Source: Nanobdellota archaeon
GTDB lineage: Archaea; Nanobdellota; Nanobdellia; Woesearchaeales; JAGLGH01
DNA length: 64,000 nt
Direction of reading: 5' to 3'
Assembly (NCBI GenBank): GCA_034723595.1
Contig: JAYEPB010000078.1
Span: 9,592 to 73,591, forward strand
The translations under genes and the position numbers were made by a program. Position 1 is the first letter of the stretch. Each line of letters begins with the position of its first letter. This document shows positions 3,876 through 64,000 of this stretch, piece after piece. The notes under the pieces were generated by a model. The model was not told the DNA's origin. It made no database searches and saw nothing but the letters and a program-made list of their open reading frames with translations.

Positions 3876-4035
3876 GTTTCAATGATTTTAATACTTTGCA
3901 TTCTATCTAAATTAATAATTCCTTTCAGTGATTATAAAAAGATTCGGTTGTAGGATTAAATGCAGATATATATTCTTGTTTGTTTATGAAACTACACTCT
4001 CTGGATTTACGCAAATCTTGCAAAAGTTCTCTATT

Positions 4036-36329: not shown

Positions 36330-36339
36330 TGTCTTGAGC

Positions 36340-37030
36340 AAGGATACTACACACTTTAGTGTGTATAGGAATTGCGTAGCACAATCCTTGCGTTTCCTCC
36401 GTAAAGTTTTTCTAACATTGTGATTATAATAAGAGTGCGCAACGAAATTTGGCGCGTGCACTCAAATTTTTTGCAATTTGATGAGCGTGAGCTGTAAAAA
36501 TTTTTCGTCGCGCGGAGGCGAACGAAAGTGGAATTTGTGAATGTTGAATTAAAACATTATAACCATAAGGTTGGAATAAATTATTGGCATCTTGAGTTTA
36601 CGACCAAATATCGTTATAAGATGTTTGGTAAGTTCAAGTATAAAAGCCTTATTGAAGCTTGTATACGTAAAGTTGCTCATAGACATAACATTGAAATCCA
36701 TGTAATTAATGTTATGCCTGAACACATTCATATACTTGTTACTTTGCCAAAGGGTGTGGATGATGAAAAAGCTTTTCAACTTCTTAAAGGCGCTTCATCA
36801 TACTATTTCTTTAACAACCATCCTAAAGCTCGTTTAAGATATCCTCAAGGACATCTCTGGAGCAGAGGTGGTTGCGCTGTAACAGTTGGTTATAATCAAT
36901 TCAGCGAAACTGAACAATATATTCTGCAACAAGCAGAGCACCATGGTCTTGCTTGCTAGGCCAACTTAGTGACCTTTATGGGATACTGTGGACTTTAGTC
37001 CACAGAGGAGGTCATTTTATGCTATTCATT
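36340..37030 (+). mobile_element. IS200/IS605-family insertion sequence (tnpA only) with GC-rich imperfect subterminal hairpins
   Basis: GC-rich hairpin-forming left end 36390-36520 (GAGTGCGC..GCGCGTGCACTC and TTCGTCGCGC..GCGAACGAA). tnpA ORF. Right-end hairpin GTGGACTTTAGTCCAC at 36990-37005. Boundaries are approximate. Confidence 0.55.
36528..36959 (+). CDS. tnpA: IS200-type Y1 (HUH) transposase TnpA
   Basis: HUH motif MPEHIHILV and the conserved GHLWSRGGCAVTVG block characteristic of IS200/IS605 TnpA. About 140 aa. Confidence 0.8.
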   Translation: MEFVNVELKHYNHKVGINYWHLEFTTKYRYKMFGKFKYKSLIEACIRKVAHRHNIEIHVINVMPEHIHILVTLPKGVDDEKAFQLLKGASSYYFFNNHPKARLRYPQGHLWSRGGCAVTVGYNQFSETEQYILQQAEHHGLAC

Positions 37031-49222: not shown

Positions 49223-49456
49223 CTAAATCCCTAATGCGTTTTTTATGGCTTCTTTGTTAAATCCGATGATGGCTTCTTCATCTATAAGGATTACAGGAAC
49301 TCCCATCTGGCCTGATTTCTCAAGCATCTCGTTCCTTGCTTCTGTGTCTTCTGAAACATCATATTCTTTGAATTCTATATTATTTTCTTTTAAGAAGTCT
49401 TTTGCCATATTGCAGTATGGGCATGTTGGTGTGCTATAAACTTTTACTTCAACCAT
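49223..49456 (-). CDS. glutaredoxin/NrdH-like small redox protein
   Basis: CPYC active site in a 77-aa thioredoxin fold. Confidence 0.7.
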   Translation of the reverse strand: MVEVKVYSTPTCPYCNMAKDFLKENNIEFKEYDVSEDTEARNEMLEKSGQMGVPVILIDEEAIIGFNKEAIKNALGI

Positions 49457-49508
49457 GATATCACCTCATACTTGATTCATTAAATGATGGAGTATTTAAT
49501 ATTTTGTT

Positions 49509-49892
49509 TTAGCAGCAATATAGTTCCTTCGGCACTTTTCCTTTCTCCACTTTGCCGAATGGATTGCCGTACTTGCGGACATTTTCTATCATCCGCTTGT
49601 TCGCTTCTGTCTCTTTCCCTGATTTGACCAGTTTTTCCCTCTCACCTATAACAGGTATTGCGACATTTGCTGCGCATCTTGCCCTGCAGGCACCGCATAG
49701 TGTACAGTCATAGAAAGTTAAGTCTGGTTCTTCATGCTGATTTATTATGAAAGCCTTGCCTCGAGGGCTGTATTTCTCGTTTTTCAATTGTTCGAATACA
49801 GGGCATGCAGTTCTGCACATCCCGCATTGCACACATCTGTCAACTTTATTGGGTTCTTGGTTCATTTTGATTATCCTTATTGTTGCTGTCAA
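49509..49892 (-). CDS. 2x[4Fe-4S] ferredoxin-domain protein (GlcF/HdrC-like N-terminal module)
   Basis: CVQCGMCRTACP and CTLCGACRARC motifs. Overlaps the upstream FAD-oxidase gene end in a different frame. The internal ATG at 49865 is a possible start. Confidence 0.6.
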   Translation of the reverse strand: MTATIRIIKMNQEPNKVDRCVQCGMCRTACPVFEQLKNEKYSPRGKAFIINQHEEPDLTFYDCTLCGACRARCAANVAIPVIGEREKLVKSGKETEANKRMIENVRKYGNPFGKVEKGKVPKELYCC

Positions 49893-51054
49893 TTAGCTTA
49901 TTTTTATTGAGTATTGCTTCTGGGTCATATTTCTTCTTCAGCATGTGCATTGTCTGCCTGAAATCTTCTTTAACATAGTCCTTTTTTTTCAGGCCAATTC
50001 CATGCTCTCCGCTGACTTCTCCGCCAAGCTCTTCAACAAGCCTGTACATTTCTGGAAGAAGGTCGCCTGTCTTGAAACGAGGGTGCAGAATACCTATGCC
50101 CAGATGGCCAAATGAAGGTATGTCATGCTGTTCAAGCCAGCTTATAAATTGAGGTATGTCTTTTAGAGGTATCTTTGGGTCTTCTTTTATTCCATATCCT
50201 TCTGAAGACAGGACAATGCCTACATTTTCTCTCATCTTCCATGATTCATCTATATCTTTTTCGTCAAATATCTCACCAGTGTCATCGTTGTATTCAACAA
50301 ACAGGTAATAGTATAATGATTTTAGCCCTGCAATCCTAGCAGCAATCTTGTCAATAAATTCAATAGCATTTAGCTTTTCAGGATCAAGCGATTTCACAAC
50401 ATCCATCAGCTCTGGCATTGTTTCAAGCTTGAAGATGTCAAGAGACCGTATTTTTGTAAGTTCAGCAAGATTAAGTTTTGCTTTTATTATTATGCCAGTT
50501 GTGCCTTCCCTTCCGCAGAAATGTTTTATGTTTTTGTCATTTGCTGTCATCACTCTGCCCATGCCGTCAATGATTTCTAAACCCTTTATCCACTCCATAG
50601 TCTTGCCATATCTTATTGCGCGCATCCCTGCAGCATTTGTAGATATCATACCCCCTATTGTGCAAACCTTATGTGATGCAGGTATGACTGGGAAAAAAAG
50701 ATTGTGTTTTGCAAGCTCTTTATTGAGATTGTCAAGGATAACACCTGGCTCTACGATTACTGTTTTTGATTTTGGGTCAATTTTTATTATTTTGTCCATC
50801 TTTGAGAAATCAACAACAATTGAATCCTGCGGCACTGCTGCTCCTGCAAGCCCTGTGCCTGCGCCTCTGGGGGTAATTGTAGAGTCTGTCCTGTGGGCAT
50901 ATCTGATAACTTTATATACATCTTCTTTGCTGGCAGGCCATATGACTGCTGATGCCTTGCCTTCAATCTGTGAGGCATCTACGCTGTAAACTAAAAGATT
51001 AAGTTTCTCATCAGAGGCATTTTTTCCAAATTGTTTATTCAGGAAACTGGTCAT
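49846..51054 (-). CDS. FAD-linked oxidase (GlcD / D-lactate dehydrogenase family)
   Basis: PCMH-type FAD-binding signature RGAGTGLAGAAVP and FAD-oxidase C-terminal domain length (402 aa). Confidence 0.7.
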   Translation of the reverse strand: MTSFLNKQFGKNASDEKLNLLVYSVDASQIEGKASAVIWPASKEDVYKVIRYAHRTDSTITPRGAGTGLAGAAVPQDSIVVDFSKMDKIIKIDPKSKTVIVEPGVILDNLNKELAKHNLFFPVIPASHKVCTIGGMISTNAAGMRAIRYGKTMEWIKGLEIIDGMGRVMTANDKNIKHFCGREGTTGIIIKAKLNLAELTKIRSLDIFKLETMPELMDVVKSLDPEKLNAIEFIDKIAARIAGLKSLYYYLFVEYNDDTGEIFDEKDIDESWKMRENVGIVLSSEGYGIKEDPKIPLKDIPQFISWLEQHDIPSFGHLGIGILHPRFKTGDLLPEMYRLVEELGGEVSGEHGIGLKKKDYVKEDFRQTMHMLKKKYDPEAILNKNKLIDSNNKDNQNEPRTQ

Positions 51055-51815
51055 TCTATTTCTTTGCCTCCTTCATTGGGGGTTTGGCTCTGGATTGCAT
51101 ATTTTCCAATTAAGAGCTGGCTGAATTCAAGCACTTCAATTCCCCTATCTTTTGCATGCTCTTTGAAGTGCGAGTAGCACATAGGGCATGGTGTGACAAG
51201 AGATACTGTCTTGCAAAGTTTCAGCCTTGCCTTTGCTATCTTGTTTGCTAAGTCCGGATTGTGATTCTTCAGCCCTCCTCCTGCGCCGCAGCATAGAGAA
51301 TCATTGTGATTGCATGGAAGTTCTAGTAATTTGAGATTAAGATTTTTTATTATCTTTCTAGGTTCATCAAATATCCTTCCTTTTCTTCCAAGATGGCAGG
51401 GATCATGATATGTTATTTTATTCCCTTCAACATCCTTTGCAAATTTAGGGTCAATCTTGTGGATGTTTTTCACAATAGTCTCAGTGATATGTTCTACATC
51501 AAGCCCGTAATTGTCTTTTAGTATAAGATAGCATGCAGGGCAGCTTGTTATTATTTTTTTAATTCCGTATTTACTGAGAAATATTCTGTTTGATTCCTGT
51601 AGATCTTCAAAATCGCTTTTGTATCCAGCATTAAGCACTGGGCTGCCGCAGCAATTGAATTCAGGTATGAAAATGAAATCTATTTCCATCATCTTTAGAA
51701 GATTCTTATAATTTTCCTCTATATCAGGATAGACAAAATGGGTCAGGCAGCCTGGATAGTATAAGATATTGCCGCCGCTGATAAGCTTTTTAAGTTTTCC
51801 AAATAGTTTTTTCAT
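51051..51815 (-). CDS. CCG (cysteine-rich) domain protein, HdrD/GlcF/LldE-like
   Basis: Two CCG domains (C..C...CCGSPV and C...CCGAGGG). Its 4-nt overlap with the FAD-oxidase gene suggests a complex. Confidence 0.65.
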   Translation of the reverse strand: MKKLFGKLKKLISGGNILYYPGCLTHFVYPDIEENYKNLLKMMEIDFIFIPEFNCCGSPVLNAGYKSDFEDLQESNRIFLSKYGIKKIITSCPACYLILKDNYGLDVEHITETIVKNIHKIDPKFAKDVEGNKITYHDPCHLGRKGRIFDEPRKIIKNLNLKLLELPCNHNDSLCCGAGGGLKNHNPDLANKIAKARLKLCKTVSLVTPCPMCYSHFKEHAKDRGIEVLEFSQLLIGKYAIQSQTPNEGGKEIE

Positions 51816-52006
51816 CTTAAGAAATTTGGTAAAATTGGAAATATAAAAAGGTTTCTAAAGTGGTCTGATTTTTATCATGTGGGGTAGGGTTTGTTTGGGA
51901 TTTTGATTCTGGGTTTGGTGGAAAATCAAGCCATTGATGAAAAACTTTAATAATAAGATCATTTTATATGCTTTAATGTAAAAAACATTCAAGGGGGATT
52001 AGTAAA

Positions 52007-52393
52007 ATGAGAAACTATAAAATAAGTAAAGGGGCAGCAATTGATTTGCAGGAGTGGGCATTAGAATTTTCAAGTGTAAAAAATGTACTAAAATCATTAC
52101 CTCAAATACCTGATGGTTCTAATAATAAGATTGAAGAAGGATTATATGTTGATTATAGTATAGATGAAGAAGAATTGGATGGGGGGGCAGATTGGCCTGA
52201 TATAGGAGTTGTCACAATCTATGCTGTATTAAATGATCAGAAGATTTATTTTGGTGAGATTAGGGCATATAATCAGGAAATGATCTGGCTTTCAACAAGA
52301 GAAGATGAAGAAGTTGATACTGTAGAAAACTGGTTTGAGTTAATAAAAGAGGATTATGAGGCATTAGTTCAGTCAAAAAATGAAGATAAATGA
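52007..52393 (+). CDS. hypothetical acidic protein (128 aa)
   Basis: ORF only. Confidence 0.3.
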   Translation: MRNYKISKGAAIDLQEWALEFSSVKNVLKSLPQIPDGSNNKIEEGLYVDYSIDEEELDGGADWPDIGVVTIYAVLNDQKIYFGEIRAYNQEMIWLSTREDEEVDTVENWFELIKEDYEALVQSKNEDK

Positions 52394-52404
52394 AAAAATT
52401 AGAA

Positions 52405-52545
52405 AATCAATTAACAGCTAACTACCTTGAGAATCTCTTCTCCATATTTCATTATCTTTGCTGGTCCAAGACCATGCACATCTTCTAGTTCTGCTAATGT
52501 CATAGGCATCTTCTGGGCGATATCAAGAAGGGTTCTGTCATGAGA
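52405..52545 (-). pseudogene. duplicated 3'-terminal fragment (last ~43 codons plus stop) of the UvrD-like helicase gene found at 54114-56246
   Basis: About 137 bp with 2 mismatches to 54108-54245 (seen directly). Encodes ...HDRTLLDIAQKMPMTLAELEDVHGLGPAKIMKYGEEILKVVSC* with no upstream coding continuation. Confidence 0.6.
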
Positions 52546-52637
52546 TTCATTAGCAGAAACAGAATAAATCAGTATTTCATACTATTATTGTATATATATA
52601 TACAAAAATAGTAACATTTATATAGTTTGCAGTATTC

Positions 52638-53264
52638 TTGATAACTATGCCATACAATAAAAAAGAAATTAACGCTGAAGTGCTATTTGAATTTATTCAA
52701 TCAATCTCTGGATTTTTTGAAGAGGAAATAGAGATGTATGCACTTGGTGGCACTGCTTTAACAATACTTCATATTAAGCCCTCAACTTTAGATATAGATA
52801 TTAATATTGATAAAATGGAAGAATATAGATATACCTGCAAAATCTTTGAACAGATAGGTTTTGAAAAAAAAGGAGTCTTTCGTTGGCTTAGCCAGGAAGG
52901 TATGGCATTCGATCTATTTTATGGATCTAATATATTAGGTACAGATTTGCTTCCAGATTGCCTTGATAAATCTAAATATATAAGATCTTTTGGTAAGATT
53001 AAACTTTATACCCTTTCAATATATGATATTATCATAAGCAAATTAGCAAGAGGTGACATGAGGGATTTTGATGATCTCAAAAGAGTATTTGAAAAGAAAG
53101 AAATAGACTTGCAAATGCTTATTCAGAGATATAAGGAAACAATGGATATTTCCATAGTTGCAGATTATAAACAAAAATTACTTGATTTGATTGAAATTAA
53201 GTTCAAAGAATGGAAATTTAGTCTTAATAGGGGCATTATAGAGGAGGTTAAGAAATGGGATTAA
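52638..53264 (+). CDS. minimal nucleotidyltransferase (MNT/pol-beta fold) domain protein
   Basis: GG-x12-DIDI pattern (LGGTALTILHIKPSTLDIDINI) matching the G[GS]...DxD nucleotidyltransferase signature. Confidence 0.45.
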   Translation: MITMPYNKKEINAEVLFEFIQSISGFFEEEIEMYALGGTALTILHIKPSTLDIDINIDKMEEYRYTCKIFEQIGFEKKGVFRWLSQEGMAFDLFYGSNILGTDLLPDCLDKSKYIRSFGKIKLYTLSIYDIIISKLARGDMRDFDDLKRVFEKKEIDLQMLIQRYKETMDISIVADYKQKLLDLIEIKFKEWKFSLNRGIIEEVKKWD

Positions 53265-54091
53265 ATATAGAAAATCAACTTGCAGATGCAGGATACAAGA
53301 TGTTGGGAGCAGATGAAAAAAATGAGAAGCTAATCTTATCTATTTTAAATACTTCAAATATTCGTTATCTGAAAGCAATTCCTTTCTTGATATATAATCA
53401 GAATCCTAATTTGAATCATATATATAAAAGAACAAAAAGTAAGAAATTGTTCTGCGCAATCATAAGTATTACCCACAAGATTTTCTCTGAATTTAAAATT
53501 CCAACAATTATACCTATATCTATATTGAGCAGATCTATGTCTCAGGCAGATTATGAACTGAAATTCAAATTGAATTATTCTGAATTTAGAGATGAATTTG
53601 AGATGCAATTGCGAAATGAGCAAAAACCAGAACTTTTGATAAATAAGCAAAAAATATATGCTGAAAGAAATCTGCAGATGTATCTTTCTCAAATATTTAC
53701 TAAAAAAGAAAAGCAGATAATTAAAAGGATATTGGAAGAGAAACCAATAAGCAGAACTGATTATGAGTATTATTCACGCAAAACAAAGAAAAAATTTCAG
53801 AGTATAATTAGTTTGCAAGAATTTGCTCAAACACTCTATGCTTTGGCTCCTAAATATGATGAAAGTCTGTTTAACCTAAAGAAGATGATTGAAAAGTGGC
53901 TTGAAAGCTATCGAAAAACTAAAGATATATCCATAGATAAATATCATATCTTTGATAGTGATAGCTTATTTATTATGTTTAAAGAAGGGAGTTCTCAGCG
54001 ATTGATTAATACTATTGTTAAACTAAAAGAGATTAAGGATAAGGAGATATTAAGACTTCTTGATGTGTATCGAGAGTGTGATTTTAGATGA
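53255..54091 (+). CDS. hypothetical protein co-transcribed with the nucleotidyltransferase (10-nt overlap)
   Basis: ORF. Helical and Lys-rich, with no recognisable motif. Could be the cognate partner, either HEPN-like or an unrelated effector. Confidence 0.35.
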   Translation: MGLNIENQLADAGYKMLGADEKNEKLILSILNTSNIRYLKAIPFLIYNQNPNLNHIYKRTKSKKLFCAIISITHKIFSEFKIPTIIPISILSRSMSQADYELKFKLNYSEFRDEFEMQLRNEQKPELLINKQKIYAERNLQMYLSQIFTKKEKQIIKRILEEKPISRTDYEYYSRKTKKKFQSIISLQEFAQTLYALAPKYDESLFNLKKMIEKWLESYRKTKDISIDKYHIFDSDSLFIMFKEGSSQRLINTIVKLKEIKDKEILRLLDVYRECDFR

Positions 54092-54113
54092 TTGAATGAA
54101 AGTTCCATATCAA

Positions 54114-56246
54114 TTAACAACTAACTACCTTGAGAATCTCTTCTCCATATTTCATTATCTTTGCTGGTCCAAGACCATGCACCTCTTCTAGTTCTGCTAA
54201 TGTCATAGGCATCTTCTGGGCGATATCAAGAAGGGTTCTGTCATGCATTATTATATAAGCAGGAGTGCCCATCTCTCTGCTGATTGCGCTTCGCCATTCT
54301 TTGAGCCTTGTTATGACATCACTTGATTTTCCTGAATTTATTTTTCCCAGGTTTGTTTTTGTGTTTGTTGTTGGTTGAACCTTTATCTCTTTCTCTTCAA
54401 TTATTTCCAGCATTGCATCAGTTATAAAATATGTATGTTTGCTGCCAGAATATGTCAGGTATAAGTTGTTTCTTGCCCTGCTCATCGCAACATAAAATAG
54501 TCTCCTTTCCTCTTCTTCCTTGTCGTATTCCTCTGCCTTGACCATGTCTATTACTGGATGCTCGCTGCCTTTGCAGGGAAAATTGATTCCATGACAGCCG
54601 ATTACAAAGACCATTTCTGCTTCCAGTCCTTTAATTGCATGTATTGTTGCAAGAGTTACATCATTTTCTCCAGCCATAATTGTTCTTTTAATCTCATCGC
54701 TTCTGACCACATGCTTTATCCCCCTCAGTTTCATCATCTGCGACAGCTCGTTCAGCTGCCTGTTGGTTCTTGCAAGCACAAATATCTCTTTCCTGGGAAT
54801 ATCTGATGCAATTATGCTCTGTATCACAAATTCAGATTCAGTATCTTCAGAATTAAATTTCAAAAGCTTGATATCCTTATTTCCCTCAAGCGATGATTCA
54901 AGGTCTGCCAGTCCCATGTTTTTTATTGATCTGTTTATCAGCCCAACTATGTGCTTTGTTGACCTGTAATTTTTTGTCAGAGTGATTATGTCGCAGCTAG
55001 GGTATTTTTCTTCAAAGTTCAGTATGTATTTTAGGTCTGAGCCTCTCCAGCCGTATATTGACTGCCTTGGGTCTCCTACGCAGAATAAGTTATCAGGAGA
55101 AAAAATATCTATGAGCTTTATCTGTGTTGAATTGACATCCTGATATTCATCTATAAGTACATGATCAAATTTCTGCACAAGATCTTTGCGTTTTTCAAAA
55201 AGAGATATTGTGTCTATCAGTTGGTCTGCAAAATCTCTAAGCCCATGCTTTTTCATGTATGCTTCAATATAATTGCAGATTCCAAAAACAAGATTTGCGC
55301 TTTTTTCATGTTCAAAGTCAATATCAAAGGATGATGCTTCAATCTTCTGATTCTTGAACTTGAAGTAGTCCCTGATAAAAAAGCAGTCATTCATAAATAT
55401 GTTTGCGAGCTGATCATAAGTTTTGCCGCGTTTCTGGGCATAGTTGAAATAAGTATCAACTGCATTGTTGATATTAATGTTAAGTTTAAACAGAGCTTTG
55501 TTTATCAATTTAATCTTATCTCGATAATTGATGACTCTTACCTGCTTGTCATATACAAGGTCATTATGCTGCCTAAGAATCTTTTCGCAGAATGAATTGA
55601 ATGTCTCAATCATTACATTATCAAGATTTCCTTTTTTTGCTATTCTTTGCATCATTTCCTGTCTTGCTTTTCTTGTGAATGTTATTGCGAGAATCTTCTT
55701 TGGGTCTGCTGACCTGTATTTTACAAGGAATTCAACCCGTTTTGTCAGCACTGTTGTCTTGCCAGAACCTGCTCCTGCTATGCATAATATGTGCTTTTTA
55801 CTGCTGAGGATTGATTTTTTCTGTTCATCATTGAATCTTGACAAAGCATCTCCAAATGCTTCAAACATCTTTTTGTCTTGTTCTGTTATTTCAGTCTTTG
55901 TTTCTTTGAAGTTAAATGATAGTTTTCTTTTGTATAATGAGGGGTTTTCGATTTCAGCTTTGCCTTTTGCGCTAAGTTCCATGACTTTCCAGAATTTGTT
56001 ACTGCTTAAAGAAACCAGTTTTATCATATCATTGAGTCTGAGATTGTCTATCATGTTACCTATTTCTTCTTTATTATAAGCAAGGCTTCCAAAGGTTTCC
56101 AGAAGATGCAACCTGTTCCTGATTATTGATTCATGGCTGTTTTTGCCTTGCAGAAATTCAATCAACAGTTTTTTTCCTACGCCAAAGGGAATTTCTTCTA
56201 ATGCTTTCAATATAAACAGATAATCCAGTTGATTGCTGTCATCCAT
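54114..56246 (-). CDS. UvrD/Rep/PcrA-family superfamily-1 DNA helicase with a C-terminal HRDC-like tail
   Basis: Walker A CIAGAGSGKTTVLTKR, helicase motifs across 710 aa, and a C-terminal helix-hairpin-helix-like segment. Confidence 0.75.
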   Translation of the reverse strand: MDDSNQLDYLFILKALEEIPFGVGKKLLIEFLQGKNSHESIIRNRLHLLETFGSLAYNKEEIGNMIDNLRLNDMIKLVSLSSNKFWKVMELSAKGKAEIENPSLYKRKLSFNFKETKTEITEQDKKMFEAFGDALSRFNDEQKKSILSSKKHILCIAGAGSGKTTVLTKRVEFLVKYRSADPKKILAITFTRKARQEMMQRIAKKGNLDNVMIETFNSFCEKILRQHNDLVYDKQVRVINYRDKIKLINKALFKLNININNAVDTYFNYAQKRGKTYDQLANIFMNDCFFIRDYFKFKNQKIEASSFDIDFEHEKSANLVFGICNYIEAYMKKHGLRDFADQLIDTISLFEKRKDLVQKFDHVLIDEYQDVNSTQIKLIDIFSPDNLFCVGDPRQSIYGWRGSDLKYILNFEEKYPSCDIITLTKNYRSTKHIVGLINRSIKNMGLADLESSLEGNKDIKLLKFNSEDTESEFVIQSIIASDIPRKEIFVLARTNRQLNELSQMMKLRGIKHVVRSDEIKRTIMAGENDVTLATIHAIKGLEAEMVFVIGCHGINFPCKGSEHPVIDMVKAEEYDKEEEERRLFYVAMSRARNNLYLTYSGSKHTYFITDAMLEIIEEKEIKVQPTTNTKTNLGKINSGKSSDVITRLKEWRSAISREMGTPAYIIMHDRTLLDIAQKMPMTLAELEEVHGLGPAKIMKYGEEILKVVSC

Positions 56247-56309
56247 AGGAAAAAGGAGAGAGGGATTATTTAAGAATGTTGTGATTTGATTTATGGGTTC
56301 AAAAGATTC

Positions 56310-57293
56310 TTATGGAATTTTTTGAAGGGCTATAATTTTAGTTTTATACTCCTCTGGGACTGTTTGTATCTGTGATAAGTATTCATTCATAAGGTTAGTT
56401 GCGAAGTTTCTTTGTTTAAATGAAAGCTTACTATACTTGATATAAAATACATGTAAATCATTCATTTTTCTAACATGATAATTAACTTTTAATGTTTTCA
56501 CTTCTTCAGAACTCACTGCTGATCTTACTAATTTATGAAACTCATTGAATTCACTTAAACTTTCAACAGTCATTTGCGTGTAAACTGGCTCTCGATTCGA
56601 TGCTATATCTTGAATAAGAAATTTTTCAACGAAAAAATATGCCTTTGCATTAGCTAATTCTATATCTTTGACAAAGTCAGGTAATTTTTTTTGTCTGAAT
56701 TGAGAATTATAAGTCATCATTTTTGGATGTGTTTTTAAGATTATTTTTGCTAAATTATTCTCTCTTTCTGGCTTTATTCTTTTACATTTTTCAGAAGTGC
56801 TGTTAAAATCTCTTCTTCTTGAATAGTATATAGTATTTTTTTCAGATTCACTTAGACTTTGCCATGTTTCTTCTGAAAAAGAATCGTAGATAAAATCTAG
56901 CATTTGATTCATTCTTACAGCTGAATCGTCTTCTATATAATTTTTTAATTCGCCTTTTAATTCAAATAATTCTTCTTTTGTCAAAGCTAGAAGGTCATAT
57001 GTATCACTTGTTTGTAATTTAATAAAACCCATTGCAGTTTTAATTCTTTCCTCAATCTCTTTGTTATTTCTTTTTTCTAATTTATAACGAAGCAATGGCA
57101 TTGGGTTTACTCTGATTGAAGGCAGTATTAATTCAACAGTCTTACTTAGTCTTTTGTACTTTTTATTAATTACCATTATTATCCTCTTAATGAATCTGTA
57201 ATCTGTGTAAATATAATTTATTATATAAATCTTGCCCTTTTGTAACTCTTTCAGAGTAATCACAGAATCAGAGATTATTGTGGAGGTCTGCAA
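56310..57293 (-). CDS. hypothetical protein (327 aa)
   Basis: ORF only; the start may be internal (MVINKKYKRL). Confidence 0.35.
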   Translation of the reverse strand: MQTSTIISDSVITLKELQKGKIYIINYIYTDYRFIKRIIMVINKKYKRLSKTVELILPSIRVNPMPLLRYKLEKRNNKEIEERIKTAMGFIKLQTSDTYDLLALTKEELFELKGELKNYIEDDSAVRMNQMLDFIYDSFSEETWQSLSESEKNTIYYSRRRDFNSTSEKCKRIKPERENNLAKIILKTHPKMMTYNSQFRQKKLPDFVKDIELANAKAYFFVEKFLIQDIASNREPVYTQMTVESLSEFNEFHKLVRSAVSSEEVKTLKVNYHVRKMNDLHVFYIKYSKLSFKQRNFATNLMNEYLSQIQTVPEEYKTKIIALQKIP

Positions 57294-57604
57294 TGTTTGC
57301 TACCAAGATGTATGAATATAGTGTATAGTGCAGGAACATTGTCAGTTGATGTTCTTCATTTTTCTGATTATGCAGTAAATGGAAACTCTAATTAGAAATA
57401 TTTAAATATTAACTATGTTTTCCATAAGTTATGAATAGCAAAATTAGGATAGGTATTGAAATAAGTTTGCTAGCTCTGCTTCTGTTATTATAGATTAGCT
57501 CTCATTGCTGATCTGGCCAATATCAACTATTAGTTTATGGAGGACAAAAATGAAAAACAAAACGCAAAAAACAATAAACAAAAAACAATTCTGGGGAAAC
57601 AAAA

Positions 57605-59110
57605 ATGGGTAGAGTAATCATATTTGATACTACTTTAAGAGATGGGGAACAGGCATCAGGATTTCATTTATATCCTGAAGAAAAACTTGCGATAGCAAAA
57701 CAATTAGCAAGATTAAGAGTTGATGTTATTGAAGCAGGCTTTGCAGCTTCATCTGATGGCGATCTTAAAGCGATATATAATATTGCAGAAGAAGTTGGTG
57801 GAAAAGATGGACCTGTAATATGTTCCCTTGCTAGGGCAAATGAAGGAGATATAGAATTAGCTGCAAGGGCATTAAGTCCAGCCTACAATAGCAGAATACA
57901 TACTTTTATTGCGACAAGTGACATACATGTTGGCAACAAGTATCACAAAAATAAAGATTGGATAATAGAACAAACAGTTAAGGCAGTTGAAAAAGCAAGA
58001 AACTATACAGATGATGTAGAGTTCTCATGTGAGGACTTTGGAAGATCTGATAAAGATTATATAGTGCAAGTTGTATCTGAAGCAATAAATGCTGGAGCAA
58101 CAACAATAAATCTTCCTGATACCATAGGATGGCTAATGCCAGATGATTGTTGTGAGAAAGTAGATTATGTAATAACTGCAGTGAGGGAAAAAGGTCTTGA
58201 TGCGATTTTTTCTGTGCATAATCATAATGATCAGGGCATGGCAACAGCAGTAACAATCGCAGGAATAAAAGCAGGAGCAAGACAGGCAGAGGTAACTATT
58301 AATGGGATTGGCGAAAGGGCAGGCAATACTGCATTAGAAGAGATTGTTGCAATACTTAAAACAAGAAAAATAGCTTATTGCAATATTGATTCAAAACTGA
58401 TTGGTCCCACAAGCAGGTTGGTAAGCAAGTATACAGGGGTAGAGCCCCAGCCTAATAAAGCAATAGTAGGGAGTAATGCATTTGCTCATGAGGCAGGAAT
58501 ACATCAGGATGGGATGGAAAAAGATGCAAGGACTTATGAGATAATGGATCCGTGTGACTATGGTGTTGAAAGTATCATAACATTTGGTCCCAGGTCTGGA
58601 AGGCGAGCTCTGAAAGCAAAGCATGAGGAATTGGGCATAAAATTAAGTGATAATGATTTTCAGATAGCTGCGCAAAGGTTTACAGATATAGCAGATAAAT
58701 TAAAATATTCAGATGATGCAGATGTAGTGAGGGCAATAAAGGGTGAAGAGATTCCTAAGTATTATGAACTTGTAAGCTATACTCCTGCAGTTAGCAAGGG
58801 TTATTCTATGGATCTTAGATTAAAGATTGGCAATGGGGTTGAAACAGTGTGTTCTGCAGGCAATGGACAGATAGATGCAGGTATCAACGCTATCATGGAA
58901 TCAGTAAACCTTGATTGCGAATTTAAATATTTTGAAGCAAACTCAAAAGGGTCTGGATCAGATGCAATAGGTCATACTAAATTAGAGCTTACTAAAAATG
59001 GCTGGAGCGTAATAGGAAAAAGTGAAAATACAGATATGGTCACAAGCACACTTCAGGCATTTGTTGACGGGTGTAATCGGATTAAGTATATGGAGGATTA
59101 TTTTGATTAA
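57605..59110 (+). CDS. leuA: 2-isopropylmalate synthase / (R)-citramalate synthase family (LeuA/CimA) with a C-terminal regulatory domain
   Basis: N-terminal IIFDTTLRDGEQASGF, the HxH metal site region and the LeuA-dimer-type C-terminal domain. 501 aa. Confidence 0.8.
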   Translation: MGRVIIFDTTLRDGEQASGFHLYPEEKLAIAKQLARLRVDVIEAGFAASSDGDLKAIYNIAEEVGGKDGPVICSLARANEGDIELAARALSPAYNSRIHTFIATSDIHVGNKYHKNKDWIIEQTVKAVEKARNYTDDVEFSCEDFGRSDKDYIVQVVSEAINAGATTINLPDTIGWLMPDDCCEKVDYVITAVREKGLDAIFSVHNHNDQGMATAVTIAGIKAGARQAEVTINGIGERAGNTALEEIVAILKTRKIAYCNIDSKLIGPTSRLVSKYTGVEPQPNKAIVGSNAFAHEAGIHQDGMEKDARTYEIMDPCDYGVESIITFGPRSGRRALKAKHEELGIKLSDNDFQIAAQRFTDIADKLKYSDDADVVRAIKGEEIPKYYELVSYTPAVSKGYSMDLRLKIGNGVETVCSAGNGQIDAGINAIMESVNLDCEFKYFEANSKGSGSDAIGHTKLELTKNGWSVIGKSENTDMVTSTLQAFVDGCNRIKYMEDYFD

Positions 59111-59154
59111 AAGTCTGCGTAGCCAACTACCTGGGGAACGAAGGTTTCCAAGTT

Positions 59155-60231
59155 TTATATTTTTGATTTAAGATTACTTTTTTTCAGTTCATCTTCAACA
59201 TTTTTATAAAATCCTTTTGGTATTGTCTTTCCCCTCTTAGGAGGGCAACCATAATTATATACCCCTCCATATTTCCTGCGATTAGTTGAGTTTTCCCAAA
59301 GGTTTTTTATTGATTGTTTTTTTAAATCTCCTATTATTGTTTTATCATCTCCTTCACATCTCAATGCCAGGCCAGTAGATGTCAAATAAAATCCATTTGA
59401 AAGCAAAGTGCATATATGGGTGCCTGGATATGATGAGATTCCATCATAAATAATTCCTTTTTCTTTATTATATTTATAAATCTTTGAGACTAATTCTATT
59501 TTTTCTTTTTCAGAAACATCATCCTTGATTGAACCATCAGGGAGAAGTGACCTCCCAGCGCAGGCAAGAAAAGGAATTAATGGATATATATTACGCTCTC
59601 GAAAAAAAGTATAGATCTCAAACAGTCCACTAATAGTATATTTTGTTATTGGTGCGACAATTGCAAGATGGGTAGGATTATGATTCACAAATCCTTCTTT
59701 TATGAGAATTTCTAAAGCCAGATCTTTTTTTGCCTTTAAATTTTTACGACCTGTTGATTGTTCAACAATCTCTTCATAAAATGAATCATATCTAATCATC
59801 AAGCTAGTGTTGGTTTTTTTAAGTTTAGTTGCATTTAATCTATTTATTGTGTGACCCTGTGTAAAAACTACTGATTTTATTCCTTCATCCTGCAGCCAGT
59901 AAAGAAAATTAAATATGCCTTTATTTTCAAATGGTTCGCCTGCACCAAGCACTCTTACACTTTTCAGGCCCAATGGTTTAGCTTCTGAAACAACTTTCTT
60001 TATCTTATTTAAATCTAAATAAGTTTGAAATTTATCCAAAGCACCATCTTTTCTAAAACACATAGGACAGTTTAAGCTACAATCAGTTCCAAAATCTATA
60101 TCTAAATGAAGTAGGCGTCCTTTAGACCTTTTTACTTCATCCCTGGATAATGACCATCCATCAAGGTCATTAATAAAATCAAAAGGCACTTTGTTTGGAA
60201 ATTTTACAGGTAAATCTGGATATTGTTTCAT
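59155..60231 (-). CDS. radical SAM enzyme
   Basis: CxxxCxxC motif CSLNCPMCF near the N-terminus; 358 aa. Confidence 0.65.
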   Translation of the reverse strand: MKQYPDLPVKFPNKVPFDFINDLDGWSLSRDEVKRSKGRLLHLDIDFGTDCSLNCPMCFRKDGALDKFQTYLDLNKIKKVVSEAKPLGLKSVRVLGAGEPFENKGIFNFLYWLQDEGIKSVVFTQGHTINRLNATKLKKTNTSLMIRYDSFYEEIVEQSTGRKNLKAKKDLALEILIKEGFVNHNPTHLAIVAPITKYTISGLFEIYTFFRERNIYPLIPFLACAGRSLLPDGSIKDDVSEKEKIELVSKIYKYNKEKGIIYDGISSYPGTHICTLLSNGFYLTSTGLALRCEGDDKTIIGDLKKQSIKNLWENSTNRRKYGGVYNYGCPPKRGKTIPKGFYKNVEDELKKSNLKSKI

Positions 60232-60902
60232 ATTTTTCCCCCCTCAATAGCAAGCCATAAATCCCCAATTTCTACTAATTGATTATTTGTCAATCCAACT
60301 TTATTGTAAGTTTCTTTTAATTCTTCTCCTCCAAATCTATAGAATGTTCCTTTGTTAGTGACTGTTCTATTATTGCCAATATCATAAATTGTTATACCGA
60401 TTGTTGGATAGTATTTCTGGAGAAATTCTGTGGTATAATTTTCTTTATTCCAAGTAATTGTTCTGATTTGAGATCCTGGTTTAGTAATTCTTTTCGTTTC
60501 TTTTAGCAAGGATATTCTTTCATCTAATCCTATACTACCTATTAGATTAAATGTCGAATATGTAAGACTGAAATAATCGTCTGGAAATTTTGTATTCAAT
60601 GCATCTGCGTATTTGATATTAATATTCATGAACTCTGATGTTCTCTTTAATGCTTCTGTAAGCATTTTAGAGTCATCTTCAATACCAAAAAATTGAACTG
60701 ATGGAAATTTTCCTGCAAGATGATACAAAGGTCTTCCAATACCGCAGCCAATATCAATTACATTTGTGCATTCTCCATTTGCGCATTTTCCAATATTCTG
60801 TAATGCTTTTATTAAATAGTCTTTTTCTGCATCAAATGTTCTTTTTAGTTCAGGCAAAGGGTTTTGGATAGCTTCCATATAATTTTGGAAATAATTCTTC
60901 AT
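60228..60902 (-). CDS. class I SAM-dependent methyltransferase
   Basis: Motif I VIDIGCGIGRPL. 4-nt overlap with the radical SAM gene. Confidence 0.6.
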   Translation of the reverse strand: MKNYFQNYMEAIQNPLPELKRTFDAEKDYLIKALQNIGKCANGECTNVIDIGCGIGRPLYHLAGKFPSVQFFGIEDDSKMLTEALKRTSEFMNINIKYADALNTKFPDDYFSLTYSTFNLIGSIGLDERISLLKETKRITKPGSQIRTITWNKENYTTEFLQKYYPTIGITIYDIGNNRTVTNKGTFYRFGGEELKETYNKVGLTNNQLVEIGDLWLAIEGGKI

Positions 60903-60999
60903 GTGAAAGGGGTAATCTAATCAATTATGTTAAAATTTTTAATGAATTTTTGCACAAAATGGTAACATTTATATATCTCAAGAGATTTTTGTAACATAT

Positions 61000-61962
61000 A
61001 TGGCTCTGCTGGATGTTAAAGATAGAAAAATACTGTATGAACTTGACTTCAATTCAAGAAAAACATATTCTGAAATTGCAAAAAAGATCAGAATGAGCAA
61101 AAGAGGAGTAGAATATAAAATTAAAAATCTTGAGAAAAAACAAATAATTTTAGGTTATGCACCAATAATAAATATTTCAAAATTAGGTTATTTATACTGC
61201 AGAATTTTTGTTAAATTTCAGAATATTACAAAAGATAAGTTAAAGGAAATAGAACATTATATTATCACAAATAAAAAAATTGGTTGGTCAATCAAATATT
61301 ATGGAAAATATGACAATGGATTTACAATTTGGGCGAAAAATATCAGCGAATTTAAATCAATCGCAAATGAATTTTATTCCAGATTTAGTACATATATTAA
61401 AGAAAGAACTGAATCAATAGCTACAAATGTTTTCTTTTATAAAAATAGATATTTGTTAAAAGATGATTGTATGGATTATCTTGAGTTAATTGAAACAGAA
61501 GAGAAAAGAAATCTTGATAATCTTGACAAAAACATATTGATAGCTCTTTCAAAGAATCCTCGAATTTCACAAATAGAAATATCAAGAATCTTAAATGTAT
61601 CTATAAAGACAGTTTCAAGCAGATTAAAGAAATTGATAAAGGAAAATATTTTATTAGGTACAAGACCAACAATAAATCATGAACTCTTAGGATACACATA
61701 TTATAAAATTTTTATGAACTTAGTTAATTTTAATCCACAGAGAATAAAACAATTTGAATCATATATTGCTTCAAATCATCGGACAATATATATAATAAAA
61801 GCAATGGGGACCTGTGATTTAGATATAGAGATTATGGTTGAGTCAAATAAAGAATTAGTCCATTTTATTGAAGATTTACAGAATAAATTCCCAACTTTAA
61901 TAAAAGATTATCAAACAATGCTATTAACAGATACAGTAAAAATAACTTATTTGCCTTTTTGA
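61000..61962 (+). CDS. tandem-domain Lrp/AsnC-like transcriptional regulator
   Basis: Two HTH-plus-RAM-like units (DRKILYELDFNSRKTYSEIAKKIRMSKRGVEYKIKNLEKKQIIL and LDKNILIALSKNPRISQIEISRILNVSIKTVSSRLKKLIKENILL). Same architecture as 33768-34706. Confidence 0.55.
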   Translation: MALLDVKDRKILYELDFNSRKTYSEIAKKIRMSKRGVEYKIKNLEKKQIILGYAPIINISKLGYLYCRIFVKFQNITKDKLKEIEHYIITNKKIGWSIKYYGKYDNGFTIWAKNISEFKSIANEFYSRFSTYIKERTESIATNVFFYKNRYLLKDDCMDYLELIETEEKRNLDNLDKNILIALSKNPRISQIEISRILNVSIKTVSSRLKKLIKENILLGTRPTINHELLGYTYYKIFMNLVNFNPQRIKQFESYIASNHRTIYIIKAMGTCDLDIEIMVESNKELVHFIEDLQNKFPTLIKDYQTMLLTDTVKITYLPF

Positions 61963-61992
61963 CAGGATATATTATCAATAATTTGATTTAAA

Positions 61993-63465
61993 ATGGCGTT
62001 ACTAACAAAATCTAAATACATTGCAGGTCTTCAGTGTCCAAAGCTATTATGGTTCTTGATTAATGATAAGGGCAAGGTTCCTGAGCCTTTAAGAGAGGCT
62101 CAATATAGGATGGATGTTGGGACAGAGGTAGGAGTTCTTGCTATAAAATTATTTCCTGGTGGGGTAAGCATTCCAACTAATGATTTTAAGGCAAACTTGA
62201 ATATTACGAAAGAGAATTTATCAAAAAATATGCCTCTTTTTGAGGCTGGAATCTTGGCTAATAATTGTTTTTCAAGAATTGATATACTAAAACCAAACAA
62301 AGATGGTTCTTTTGATATTATTGAGGTTAAATCTGGCACTAAAGTTAAAGAAGAGAATATCCATGATGTATCTTTTCAGAAATATTGTTGTGAGATGGCA
62401 GGATTAAAGATTGCCAGGTGTTCTTTATGTTTTATAAATAATCAGTATGTCAGAGAAAAGGAATTAAATATTAATGAATTATTCACAATTCAGGATATTA
62501 CTGCTGAAGTTGTTCAAGCGCAACAAGGTATTCAAGAACGAATTGATGAGTTCTTTAATATTATTAAATCTCCAAATTTACCTTCAGTTTCAATAGGAAG
62601 ACATTGTAATTCTCCTTATTCTTGTAATTTAATGGATGAATGTTGGGGATTCTTGCCAAAGAATAATGTCTTCACATTATATATGGGGGGAAAGAAAAGC
62701 ATTGAACTATTCAGTAAAGATATTCATAGTATTGCAGATATTCCTGATGATTTTAAACTAACAAATAATCAGGGGATTCAGAGGAAATGTGAACAAACAG
62801 GTGAGGTTCATATACAGCCTTTTGAGATTAAACAATTCCTGAACACTTTAATTTATCCACTTTATCATCTGGATTTTGAAACATTTTCACCTGCTATTCC
62901 AAGATATGATTATTCAAGACCTTATCAAAAAATACCTTTCCAGTTTTCACTGCATATTGAACAAGAAGATGGTTCAACAGAGCACATATCCTTTTTAGCT
63001 GAGGGTAAAGAAGACCCAAGACCTGCATTTTTAGCCAGATTAAAAGAGGTTATGGGAACACAAGGAAGTGTTGTAGTCTATAATCAAGCCTTTGAAAAAT
63101 GGGTGTTAAATACTCTGGCAAGAGACTTTCCAGAATACAAAGGTTGGGTAAATGAAATATTGCTAAGAGTAGCAGATCTTTTAATCCCTTTCAGAAGCTT
63201 TAATTATTATCATCCAAGCCAGCAGGGAAGCGCATCTCTTAAAAAAGTCCTTCCAGCACTTACAGGAGAAAGCTATGAAGGAATGGAAATCGCAGATGGA
63301 GGAGATGCAAGTCTGAGATATGAGGAAATAACCTTTGGTGATATAGCTGAAGAAGAAAGAGCAAAAGTTAGAGAAAATCTTGAGAAATATTGTGAACTTG
63401 ATACTTGGGCAGAAGTGGTTATTATAAGAAAATTAAAGGAAATTGTCGGAAATAGTAACATTTAA
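61993..63465 (+). CDS. PD-(D/E)xK nuclease-superfamily protein (RecB-like, DUF2779-type), tentative
   Basis: RIDILKP...FDIIEVKSG gives a D...D-x-E-x-K arrangement. The family call is from memory of the architecture only. Confidence 0.35.
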   Translation: MALLTKSKYIAGLQCPKLLWFLINDKGKVPEPLREAQYRMDVGTEVGVLAIKLFPGGVSIPTNDFKANLNITKENLSKNMPLFEAGILANNCFSRIDILKPNKDGSFDIIEVKSGTKVKEENIHDVSFQKYCCEMAGLKIARCSLCFINNQYVREKELNINELFTIQDITAEVVQAQQGIQERIDEFFNIIKSPNLPSVSIGRHCNSPYSCNLMDECWGFLPKNNVFTLYMGGKKSIELFSKDIHSIADIPDDFKLTNNQGIQRKCEQTGEVHIQPFEIKQFLNTLIYPLYHLDFETFSPAIPRYDYSRPYQKIPFQFSLHIEQEDGSTEHISFLAEGKEDPRPAFLARLKEVMGTQGSVVVYNQAFEKWVLNTLARDFPEYKGWVNEILLRVADLLIPFRSFNYYHPSQQGSASLKKVLPALTGESYEGMEIADGGDASLRYEEITFGDIAEEERAKVRENLEKYCELDTWAEVVIIRKLKEIVGNSNI

Positions 63466-63773
63466 ATTCTCAGTTCTGATTTCAAATTTAGGATAAATAA
63501 CTTTTGAGGTAAAAAGTTAATCTCTTATTTGCGAATGAAAGTGAGACATAAGTGAGCCATAGGGTTTAATACCCAGACCATTATAGGTTGGGGGAATAGT
63601 TCATTTATTGCAGGGAAAATAACATAATTCCTTATATGGCATCATTTATTCCTGCTGGAAAAACTGCTGCTAGGACAGACAATAAAGTTAGCAGGAAAAT
63701 CTTGTTCTTTGAAGATAGAAAAAGTAGAATCTATTGCAAGAATTGATGTATGGCTATTTTTTTAAAGAAAAAA

Positions 63774-63892
63774 TAGCCCCGCTCGGAAATACGTGTGATG
63801 TCTGAGACTGAGTATTTTGCTCATACAAAACATTTCGAACCGAGGTCCCAGGACCCAAAATCCTAGATGATTGGCCACTACACTACGGGGCT
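63774..63892 (-). tRNA. tRNA-Gln (anticodon UUG) with an insertion (presumed intron) of about 46 nt in the T-loop
   Basis: Manual fold of the reverse complement: acceptor AGCCCCG/CGGGGCT with the A1-U72 pair typical of archaeal tRNA-Gln; discriminator A; no encoded CCA; T6 trailer. D-arm GTGT-AGTGGCCAA-TCAT. Anticodon stem TAGGA/TCCTG with loop TTTTGGG (U33, UUG, G37). Variable loop GGAC. T-stem CTCGG/CCGAG enclosing TTCGAAA plus 46 extra nt. Confidence 0.75.
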
Positions 63893-64000
63893 ATGTAAGT
63901 TAGTAGGAAGAAAGGATTATTTATAAAGTTTTCCAAAACTTAAGAGCTTCTTCTTCAATAAAGTGAAGCTTGGCAGGGATGATTAGGCAGTGTAGAGGTT

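Follow-up and report, generated by a model that had tools for sequence, protein, structure and literature searches.

Duplicated helicase gene end around a toxin–antitoxin-like nucleotidyltransferase cassette of a Nanobdellota archaeon: a possible scar of one-ended homologous recombination

Among the described toxin–antitoxin (TA) systems built around a small nucleotidyltransferase (NTase), those closest to the system considered here are the MenAT/MenT systems, with MenT1 (Rv0078A) of Mycobacterium tuberculosis (PMC10435456), the AbiE systems (type IV TA and abortive infection) and the HepT–MntA (HEPN–MNT) pairs of type VII. TA modules have been called 'mobile' mainly on account of their patchy distribution (PMC2701414), and how those without mobility genes of their own move and persist is an old open question. 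Here we describe a two-gene NTase cassette at positions 52579–54091 of a 64,000-nucleotide stretch of a Nanobdellota archaeon (contig JAYEPB010000078.1; this whole stretch is called the window below), which is bracketed by a near-identical direct repeat of the 3′ end of the neighboring helicase gene. Tentatively, and with slightly less than even credence, we read this TA-like cassette with its repeat as the scar of a one-ended homologous recombination event that has been kept by addiction.

The cassette comprises two plus-strand genes, the first of which (52647–53264) codes for a 205-aa NTase of the DUF6036 family (41.1 bits in Pfam versus a cut-off of 23.6) and overlaps by 10 nt the second (53255–54091), which codes for a 278-aa partner protein. 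An earlier note, made from the sequence of the window alone, had recognized two overlapping genes here, the first with a GG...DxD NTase signature; the overlap, the DUF6036 match and the conservation of the active site bear this out, as the GG...DxD motif, a third Asp and a KLARGDxRDFxD motif are invariant in the family. The same note's comparison with MNT/HEPN modules fails on both proteins. DUF6036 is matched by 31 of 31 relatives of the NTase, AbiEii (PF08843, best E 3e-5) by 10/31 and DUF2204 by 8/31, with no match to NTP_transf_2/PF01909 in the window NTase or in any of these 31. Its AlphaFold2 model (pLDDT 90.7, pTM 0.87) displays the NTase fold, and a Foldseek search recovers as its nearest structures the uncharacterized TM1012 (E 4e-5), followed by the MenT1 toxin of M. 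tuberculosis and then by antibiotic NTases. The partner, for its part, combines the lack of a HEPN family match with the lack of an invariant His and of a significant fold match, as detailed below.

With the MenT systems the cassette thus shares a small polymerase-beta-type NTase in a two-gene module, its model matching the MenT1 structures 8an4 and 8an5 (Foldseek E 2e-4 to 8e-4, TM about 0.5, 0.54 for the match of best E). However, this likeness is one of predicted fold: the NTase is only 13–15% identical to MenT1, TM1012 is the better match, and the partner is unrelated to the MenA antitoxins. With AbiE it shares an NTase of the DUF6036/DUF2204/AbiEii group, a larger and perhaps DNA-binding partner, and a palindromic operator. 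It differs in that the NTase gene comes first, reversing the AbiE order, and is shorter at 205 aa; moreover, the window NTase falls below AbiEii significance and has no PADLOC match, there is no upstream winged-helix AbiEi, and the partner, lying downstream, lacks an AbiEi match and shows only a weak DUF7071 signal. With HepT–MntA it shares the overlapping, NTase-led gene pair, and genuine HEPN–MNT pairs at three other loci (L040, L134 and L008) display the same kind of bracketing repeat; yet the window NTase does not belong to PF01909/Polbeta, and the partner has neither a HEPN match nor the Rx4-6H motif nor a HEPN-like fold. By predicted fold, then, the NTase is most like toxins of the MenT/AbiEii type, with membership in HepT–MntA excluded and membership in AbiE not established.

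The NTase gene is preceded by a compact regulatory region (52579–52646, plus strand) comprising the palindrome ATACTATTATTGTAT (52579–52593), the element TACAAAAATAG (52601–52611) and a TATA-like element TTTATATA (52617–52624) that ends 22 nt ahead of the ATG. About 65 nt upstream of the NTase are retained in all six of the unrelated genomic contexts in which the cassette was compared, namely the palindrome ATACAAnnATTGTAT, the TACAAAAATAG element, and a TATA-like AnnATTTATATA some 22 nt before the ATG. The palindrome is matched exactly in cassette-bearing loci only, with no match in ~1.9 Mb of other DPANN loci. It is a putative operator, which suggests autoregulation. A scan of this archaeal window for bacterial-type promoters and terminators was uninformative, giving promoter counts equal to those of shuffled sequence and no terminators.

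The partner is modeled by AlphaFold2 (pLDDT 83) as an all-helical protein over residues 1–220, followed by a small C-terminal beta-beta-beta-alpha-beta domain, with a possible helix-turn-helix around residues 150–180. The earlier note had suggested a search of this protein for HEPN or other effector folds: a Foldseek search of the PDB with the model gave no significant match and no HEPN structure among its hits, and no HEPN match to Pfam was found in the partner or its relatives. Likewise, no His is invariant over 39 aligned homologues, and the HEPN Rx4-6H motif is therefore absent. A weak match to DUF7071 in 16/39 relatives (residues 151–177) is the sole recurrent family signal. The NTase is likely to be the toxin of the cassette, as suggested by its modeled fold, and the partner is likely a DNA-binding antitoxin or repressor that is translationally coupled to the NTase. 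Toxicity of one product with neutralization by the other, and addiction of the cell to the cassette, would be in keeping with the gene overlap, the cassette-specific palindromic operator and the MenT1-like fold.

NTase and partner each have more than 200 homologue clusters, all of them from Woesearchaeota/Nanoarchaeota (DPANN), and the two genes stand side by side in the same order at every locus inspected. PADLOC, NCBIfam and PDB sequence searches returned nothing for either protein, and no NTase relative was found among IMG/VR viral contigs; an exact-protein look-up had no match for the helicase or for a 206-aa form of the NTase, while the 205-aa form is present in the database. The cassette, at 28–30% GC, is poorer than the window (33%). 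This might be taken as a sign of recent import, a reading that we rejected because the cassette of the closest relative has the same GC, which makes it a property of the genes. The traits of TA style are thus the overlapping genes, the invariant catalytic residues, the cassette-specific palindrome and the MenT1-like fold, and on these features of its sequence 52579–54091 is best described as a discrete, apparently self-regulated two-gene cassette of this style, distinct from an MNT–HEPN pair. A DPANN-wide two-gene module (DUF6036 NTase, 278-aa partner, palindromic operator) is thereby defined that is absent from the libraries and papers searched.

On its downstream side the cassette faces the convergent gene for a UvrD/PcrA-like SF1 helicase of 710 aa with a C-terminal HRDC domain (54114–56246, minus strand), in which Pfam recognizes PF00580 (7e-58), PF13361 (2e-28) and PF00570 (1e-22), that is, UvrD N, UvrD C and HRDC. 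The helicase is conserved across DPANN archaea at 47–92% identity. Its true 3′ end, comprising the final 43 codons with their stop and 5 nt beyond (54109–54245, minus strand), begins 17 bp after the partner stop codon (spacer 54092–54108). The same 43 codons, stop and 5 nt occur a second time on the far side of the cassette (52406–52542, minus strand), encoding a peptide that ends in ELEDVHGLGPAKIMKYGEEILKVVSC before its stop, and are separated from the operator by a 36-bp spacer (52543–52578). In-frame stops lie just upstream in this second copy, where the longest reading is a 32-codon open reading frame from an internal Met and no usable start codon is available; it is therefore an orphan fragment. 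The earlier note had already taken the upstream copy for an orphan and the downstream one for the real gene end, in which the 710-aa helicase indeed terminates. It had also described the direct repeat with its two mismatches, which alignment bears out at a length of 137 nt, the coordinates given there being off by 1–3 nt.

The two copies thus differ by 1.5%, at a start-to-start spacing of 1703. One mismatch sets 52417 G in the orphan against 54120 A in the gene, a synonymous difference between the Ser codons AGC and AGT; the other sets 52480 A in the orphan against 54183 C in the gene, giving Asp in the orphan and Glu in the helicase. Both fall on third codon positions of the helicase frame. 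Because Glu is the most frequent residue at the second position among helicase orthologues, and because the close relative introduced below has the Ser codon AGC like the orphan, each copy carries one derived change, that of the gene being silent. The similarity breaks off sharply at both edges, and the repeat is therefore not a piece of a larger segmental duplication, an alternative that the earlier note had raised. The sequence to the left of the orphan (the end of the gene g52007 and 12 nt) is unrelated to that on the left of the true copy; a likeness of ~14/23 nt between the two was set aside as no better than chance in AT-rich DNA. Within the window, a 32-nt core of the repeat has exactly two occurrences (shuffles predict 0), no inverted repeats were detected at the cassette or repeat, and Rfam has no match anywhere in the window.

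The junctions are also found in the reads. In an independent k=31 assembly of run SRR26901924, one unitig (L168) corresponds to window 49365–52447 and another (L001) to 52513–54150, both at 100% identity, the latter spanning the 36-bp spacer and crossing the boundary 52542/52543 between orphan and spacer. The ends at 52447 and 54150 represent the last 31-mer with the variant base, 30 nt beyond 52417 and 54120 respectively, and the left end at 52513 represents the first 31-mer that contains 52543, the unique base just outside the repeat. As the unitig ends coincide with breaks that k=31 would force, all four junctions exist in the reads. In the unitigs the left-hand single-nucleotide polymorphism (SNP) of each copy is tied to its own left flank, and linkage across the whole repeat comes from the original assembly only.

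A comparison with the closest relative, represented by two ENA contigs that overlap at 99.9% (L160/L161; 90–94% nucleotide identity to the window by blastn), separates the age of the cassette from that of the repeat. The relative displays the order lutA, 75 bp, operator–NTase–partner, three small genes (a, b and c; 1222 bp) and helicase 3′ end, that is, the same cassette between the same neighbors, without g52007 and without the orphan fragment. Homology to the window extends up to 51859, returns exactly at the palindrome (52579), stops exactly at the partner stop codon (54091) and returns at the helicase end. Hence, a block of 719 bp (51860–52578) is specific to the window, consisting of g52007 together with the region that precedes it, 12 nt, the orphan and the 36-nt spacer, in place of which the relative has the 75 unrelated bp; genes a, b and c are in turn missing from the window, which has only the 17-bp spacer where the relative has its 1222 bp. 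Between the two, synonymous divergence (dS) amounts to 0.29 in the NTase gene and 0.33 in the partner gene, comparable to the neighboring glcD (0.18), lutA (0.38) and the 5′ part of the helicase gene (0.26, from locus L055), and this argues that the cassette is an old resident co-inherited with the locus under purifying selection. The ratio of nonsynonymous to synonymous divergence (dN/dS) is 0.22 for the NTase and 0.23 for the partner, versus 0.06–0.14 for the neighbors. Since the copies of the repeat are only 1.5% apart against the cassette dS of 0.29–0.33, the repeat is far younger than the cassette, and we infer from these divergences that the event that formed it was recent and took place within one species.

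The same architecture was encountered elsewhere. At locus L165 (also L166) another NTase–partner cassette lies within a direct repeat with a 52-nt core of 90% identity and a spacing of ~1660 nt: the downstream copy comprises the 3′-terminal 17 codons of a convergent gene of 293 aa (ending in QGYNNGYADGLLKLEE before the stop) and the upstream orphan (EGYNNDYADGLLKLEE, stop) lies just before the operator. The window and L165 have no common sequence between repeat and operator, nor downstream of the partner stop codon. When 1.88 Mb of DPANN loci were compared with themselves by blastn, blind to content, 41 dispersed direct repeats of 45 nt or more emerged (identity 80% or higher, spacing 0.3–6 kb), or ~1 per 50 kb. 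Three of these bracket overlapping two-gene cassettes that Pfam resolves as winged helix-turn-helix (wHTH)–MNT plus HEPN: at L040 the repeat covers the 3′ 110 codons of a convergent gene (>260 nt, 96%), at L134 the 5′ end of an HsdR-like gene (130 nt, 95%), and at L008 the 5′ end of a divergent gene with the sequence ahead of it (122 nt, 93%). At L110, from an independent DPANN genome whose helicase is 63% identical to that of the window, 55 nt of the helicase 3′ end itself are duplicated (3173–3227 and 3947–4001; KIMKYGSEILDIVGGMK and stop in the gene, KIMKYSDEMLDIVGGMK and stop in the orphan), the copies flanking a gene pair for an 88-aa and a MazE-like 109-aa protein, with an MNT–HEPN pair adjoining the orphan; the helicase 3′ end may be a recurrent recombination spot. 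Other bracketed cargo includes a Fic/DOC protein, an AAA_14/DUF4143 ATPase, a HATPase_c_4–wHTH protein, a radical SAM enzyme and a metallophosphatase. Across the cases the repeats measure ~42 to 260 nt, and their outer edges keep to gene ends: 5 nt past the stop in the window, where the conserved sequence of the gene runs out, 2 nt past the stop in L110, right at it in L040, and 1–2 nt before the ATG in L134.

The association was quantified in 126 non-redundant DPANN loci (1.77 Mb), in which profile searches identified 25 NTase cassettes (19 MNT-like and six DUF6036). The 500 nt upstream of each were aligned to the 500 nt downstream, with 266 same-strand gene pairs of similar span as controls and a score of at least 30 as threshold. 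Flank-to-flank repeats were found around 7/25 cassettes versus 2/266 control pairs (Fisher p = 5e-7; 4e-6 without the window). A 42-nt repeat at L155 that is not coding-like was left as ambiguous, and flank similarities at L162 and L177 (z 2.4–3.5) were rejected as AT-rich operator-like sequence with no clear repeats. Literature searches recovered no description of DUF6036, nor of TA cassettes flanked by duplicated host gene ends. As a separate observation, L162 bears a 32-nt direct repeat (97%; 3834–3865 and 6580–6611) made up of the last three partner codons and 23 nt, which brackets four minus-strand genes including one for a DEAD-box helicase; its second copy immediately precedes another module, in reversed order (a wHTH protein and a DUF2204/DUF6036 NTase).

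Several aspects of this geometry find a precedent in homology-facilitated illegitimate recombination, which de Vries and Wackernagel reportedly described in 2002. Such recombination, like Campbell-type integration of a suicide plasmid, has been described experimentally in bacteria. As in those events, the window displays one homologous anchor duplicated on both sides together with one illegitimate junction, with neither a recombinase nor defined ends being needed, and the geometry of a single novel junction is also seen in L110, L134 and L040; it differs in that the parents are here reconstructed rather than observed. Literature searches recovered no account of such events as a naturally recurring pattern at TA cassettes or in DPANN archaea. 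In the window, the boundary 52542/52543 is the only junction foreign to either parental arrangement, all others looking native, with the left copy beside g52007 and the right copy beside the partner. Outer edges at a gene end combined with one non-native junction fit a one-ended recombination, and the divergence of the copies, at 1.5%, places both parents in the same species.

Hence, we propose that a single one-ended (homology-facilitated, Campbell-like) recombination may have joined two haplotypes of the locus from the same population. One parent would have had the cassette directly beside the helicase 3′ end, nearly as in the sister lineage, and the other would have been cassette-free, with the order lutA–g52007–helicase, g52007 lying immediately next to the end of the helicase gene. 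If the two paired by homology on one side and were joined illegitimately at 52542/52543 on the other, the observed product would result, lutA–g52007–helicase-end orphan–cassette–helicase end and gene, with the helicase intact and the cassette in place. Integration of a circularized fragment would be a Campbell-type variant of the same event, and either direction of the incoming DNA fits the product, as helicase and cassette remain intact both ways. Repeat-flanked inserts are normally lost by loop-out recombination. Were the cassette addictive, however, both loop-out and a clean swap to the cassette-free allele would kill the cell, and the aberrant products that retain the cassette would survive, which could account for the enrichment of such scars at NTase-type TA cassettes in DPANN.

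Several points weigh against this proposal. None of the databases searched yielded the cassette-free haplotype, with g52007 directly beside the helicase end, so that one parent is hypothetical; and in the relative 1.2 kb with three extra genes separates the partner from the helicase, so that the exact arrangement of the other is an extrapolation. The NTase–partner pair is unusually conserved for a TA system (60–73% identity for the NTase, more than 200 clusters) and, given the lack of a PADLOC or TA-family match for the partner, could be a housekeeping one, which would undo the argument from addiction. The SNPs are unphased across the repeat, and the data may thus reflect a chromosome together with an excised circle, or a mixed population. 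No clear repeat flanks the cassette in 4/6 DUF6036 contexts. The sample behind the enrichment is modest and helicase-centered, and its controls are mostly core genes, while TA cassettes occupy scar-prone variable regions. Finally, the Fisher p rises to 0.026 when both the window and the four loci to which their repeats had first drawn attention are left out, although dropping those four is over-conservative, as they were found blind to their content.

Foremost among the alternatives, unlikely in our estimate but a serious contender, is a neutral rearrangement scar, formed in a fluid lutA–helicase interval by illegitimate or one-ended recombination or by import of a block of g52007 and helicase end, which by chance placed the orphan beside a resident and possibly housekeeping gene pair, with the enrichment arising because TA-like genes occupy variable regions. 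Indeed, the block from helicase to dph5 is inverted relative to locus L029, the genes to either side of the helicase vary among relatives of 90–93% identity, and synteny around the helicase is not kept in DPANN. Direct repeats at ~1 per 50 kb also surround cargo unrelated to TA systems (the radical SAM gene, the metallophosphatase and the ATPase), and a pair so highly conserved and co-inherited with its flanks sits well with a neutral event. Against this, the precise bracketing of 2/6 DUF6036 contexts and of about half of the MNT–HEPN pairs is hard to obtain by chance, and the other bracketed cargo consists mostly of conflict-type genes (Fic/DOC, AAA_14/DUF4143, MazE-like). If the neutral account were true, the finding would amount to the usual turnover of a fluid stretch in a small archaeal genome.

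Rather improbable, in our view, is a tandem duplication of a segment that begins ahead of the cassette and reaches 137 bp into the helicase gene, with later loss of the first cassette copy or its replacement by g52007. No spontaneous rearrangement is commoner than tandem duplication, and one of this extent would give exactly the observed junction of a helicase-internal end to the upstream region of the cassette. However, at least two further precise events would be required, no remnant of a first cassette is seen to the left of the orphan in the window, L165, L040 or L134, and the sequence left of the orphan is unrelated to that left of the real copy despite a repeat that is 98.5% identical.

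We hold to be just as improbable a mobile cassette that inserted into the helicase 3′ end through a staggered cut or site-specific recombination, the repeat being either a target duplication or a copy of a gene end carried by the element. This is close to what the earlier note had proposed, and the association on which it drew is real and recurrent, gene-end direct repeats surrounding cassettes here and at L165, L040, L134, L008 and L110 in excess of the control pairs; a target duplication of transposase or integrase type, in contrast, found no support. The cassette is a discrete unit in at least six contexts and of low GC, as a mobile element might be, but the relative's cassette shares this GC and sits at the same locus with matching dS and without the duplicated fragment, an outcome that the earlier note had itself named as refuting its reading. 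An empty site, with the helicase directly followed by g52007, was likewise not seen in 158 helicase loci from scans of GTDB genomes and JGI metagenomes (full-length identity never closer than 76%), none of which has the cassette or g52007. These loci also showed no second helicase C-terminus at the sensitivity of tblastn, the 55-nt duplicate in L110 having come out later by blastn. Pfam, NCBIfam and PADLOC scans of all genes between 42.6 and 63.5 kb detected no integrase or transposase. With no recombinase, no conserved or shared termini or inverted repeats, very variable repeat lengths and no hairpin, an enzyme-made target-site duplication is therefore unlikely.

The classical elements of this kind differ in corresponding ways. 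Integrative elements duplicate the 3′ end of their target gene as attL/attR, at tRNA or protein-coding genes. Like them, the cassette is bracketed by direct repeats of a gene 3′ end and the target gene is intact. Yet the window has no integrase, an insert of only 1.57 kb and near-identical copies; the relative's cassette lacks att-like repeats, and in L134 and L008 it is 5′ ends that are duplicated. Integron gene cassettes with attC arrays have reportedly been found in Archaea by Ghaly et al. in 2022; these are small, often encode TA systems and are separated by direct repeats of 60–140 nt. The window repeat, however, is conserved helicase coding sequence with neither an integron integrase nor an Rfam match, and the idea of an attC-like hairpin was rejected, since as single-stranded DNA the repeat folds no better than shuffled versions (z = -0.30). 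One locus, L052, is array-like in its own right: between 3159 and 6010 it has 4–5 copies of a 60–90-nt direct repeat, one pair being 100% identical, between small genes that include an NYN-like gene and a wHTH-NTase plus HEPN pair, in what resembles an integron array without a visible integrase.

Very improbable, lastly, is an assembly artefact in which two strain variants were joined by the metagenome assembler: the source is a metagenome-assembled genome, the 137-nt repeat is near typical maximum k-mer sizes and unitigs do not phase across it, but the junction of helicase-internal end, spacer and cassette is present in the read-derived unitigs with the left flanks linked to their own SNPs, and analogous structures, several substitutions apart, occur in many independent assemblies.

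The case in the window by itself is a modest rearrangement scar, and it is the recurrent signature enriched at TA cassettes that is of interest, as this duplicated gene end hints at a transposase-free movement of such modules or at their resistance to removal. One-ended homologous recombination coupled to addiction thus offers a concrete and testable model for the persistence of TA modules that lack mobility genes. In its broadest form, which we regard as doubtful though conceivable, TA-like cassettes of DPANN, and perhaps more widely, would spread or hold their place without a transposase through host recombination, with the adjacent gene end, a conserved one, as homology arm. Whether cassette-free DNA came in by recombination or cassette-bearing DNA reached a naive genome, the sole survivors would be aberrant one-ended products retaining the addictive cassette, and these would leave the scar. 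If true, the configuration of orphan gene end, cassette and intact gene would preserve in the genome a trace of TA addiction at work against allelic replacement, and would offer a general route to new selfish cassettes such as the DUF6036–partner pair; it could also act as a genomic signature for selfish or defence cassettes as yet unknown in uncultured archaea.

The gene upstream of the orphan, g52007 (52007–52393, plus strand), codes for a 128-aa protein of unknown function with no match in Pfam, NCBIfam or PADLOC. Its family comprises ~20 homologue clusters at no more than 65% identity. At other loci (L169–L176) the homologue always comes first in an operon, followed by a gene for a 530–554-aa SWIM-finger/DUF6880 protein, and these operons sit in islands with type I restriction–modification genes, an NYN nuclease, an integrase or an HNH nuclease. 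In the window g52007 stands alone, 12 nt from the orphan, and from this gene order it appears to be the remnant of such a two-gene operon. The g52007–SWIM/DUF6880 pair itself looks like an uncharacterized two-gene system, possibly one of defence.

As for the wider neighborhood, the relatives of the helicase place the window among the DPANN archaea, and the NCBI names of the cassette proteins are those of a Nanoarchaeota metagenome-assembled genome. In L029, from a Woesearchaeota metagenome-assembled genome with a helicase 76% identical to that of the window, a HAD–glutaredoxin–FeS–GlcD–LutA block is common with the window; next in L029 come dph5, an RNA-like spacer, a Fic-like gene and, oppositely oriented, the helicase. 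The window has dph5 and the RNA-like spacer on the other strand, at 63.7–64.0 kb, and this placement indicates that the block from helicase to dph5 is inverted between the two. The inversion relates window 54114–64000 to L029 5078–9427, with breakpoints at the helicase 3′ end and between lutA and dph5. About 7.4 kb of the window replace the Fic-like gene of L029 and hold g56310, leuA, a radical SAM gene, a methyltransferase, a double-wHTH AsnC-type regulator and a DUF2779/Cas4-like nuclease. Conserved synteny is otherwise lacking around the helicase in DPANN. The g56310 gene (56310–57293, minus strand; 289–327 aa, 27% GC) matches no family. L055 (1–1099; helicase 93% identical) lacks it upstream of the helicase and has an unrelated 264-aa gene there, and both flanks of the helicase are therefore variable.

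Further NTase genes were observed in and around these loci. On the minus strand of the window (34915–36461), an open reading frame for a 115-aa MNT-like NTase lies beside one of 400 aa; it was matched by the profile search and has no flanking repeat (score 11). In L186 (5403–8624) a radical SAM gene lies directly next to an NTase–partner cassette and convergent to it, and beyond this gene come those for a methyltransferase and a double AsnC-type regulator. Genes of the same kinds occur 5 kb from the window cassette (59155–61962), with sequence similarity only for the regulator (51% over 37 aa), and a common ancestry of the two neighborhoods is unproven. Beside dph5, the window also has an unannotated tRNA-Gln(UUG) gene (63775–63891, minus strand) with a 43–45-nt intron in the T-loop. 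ARAGORN and Rfam miss it in the raw sequence, and ARAGORN calls it after removal of the intron in silico; it is homologous to L029 6025–6253 at 74% identity.

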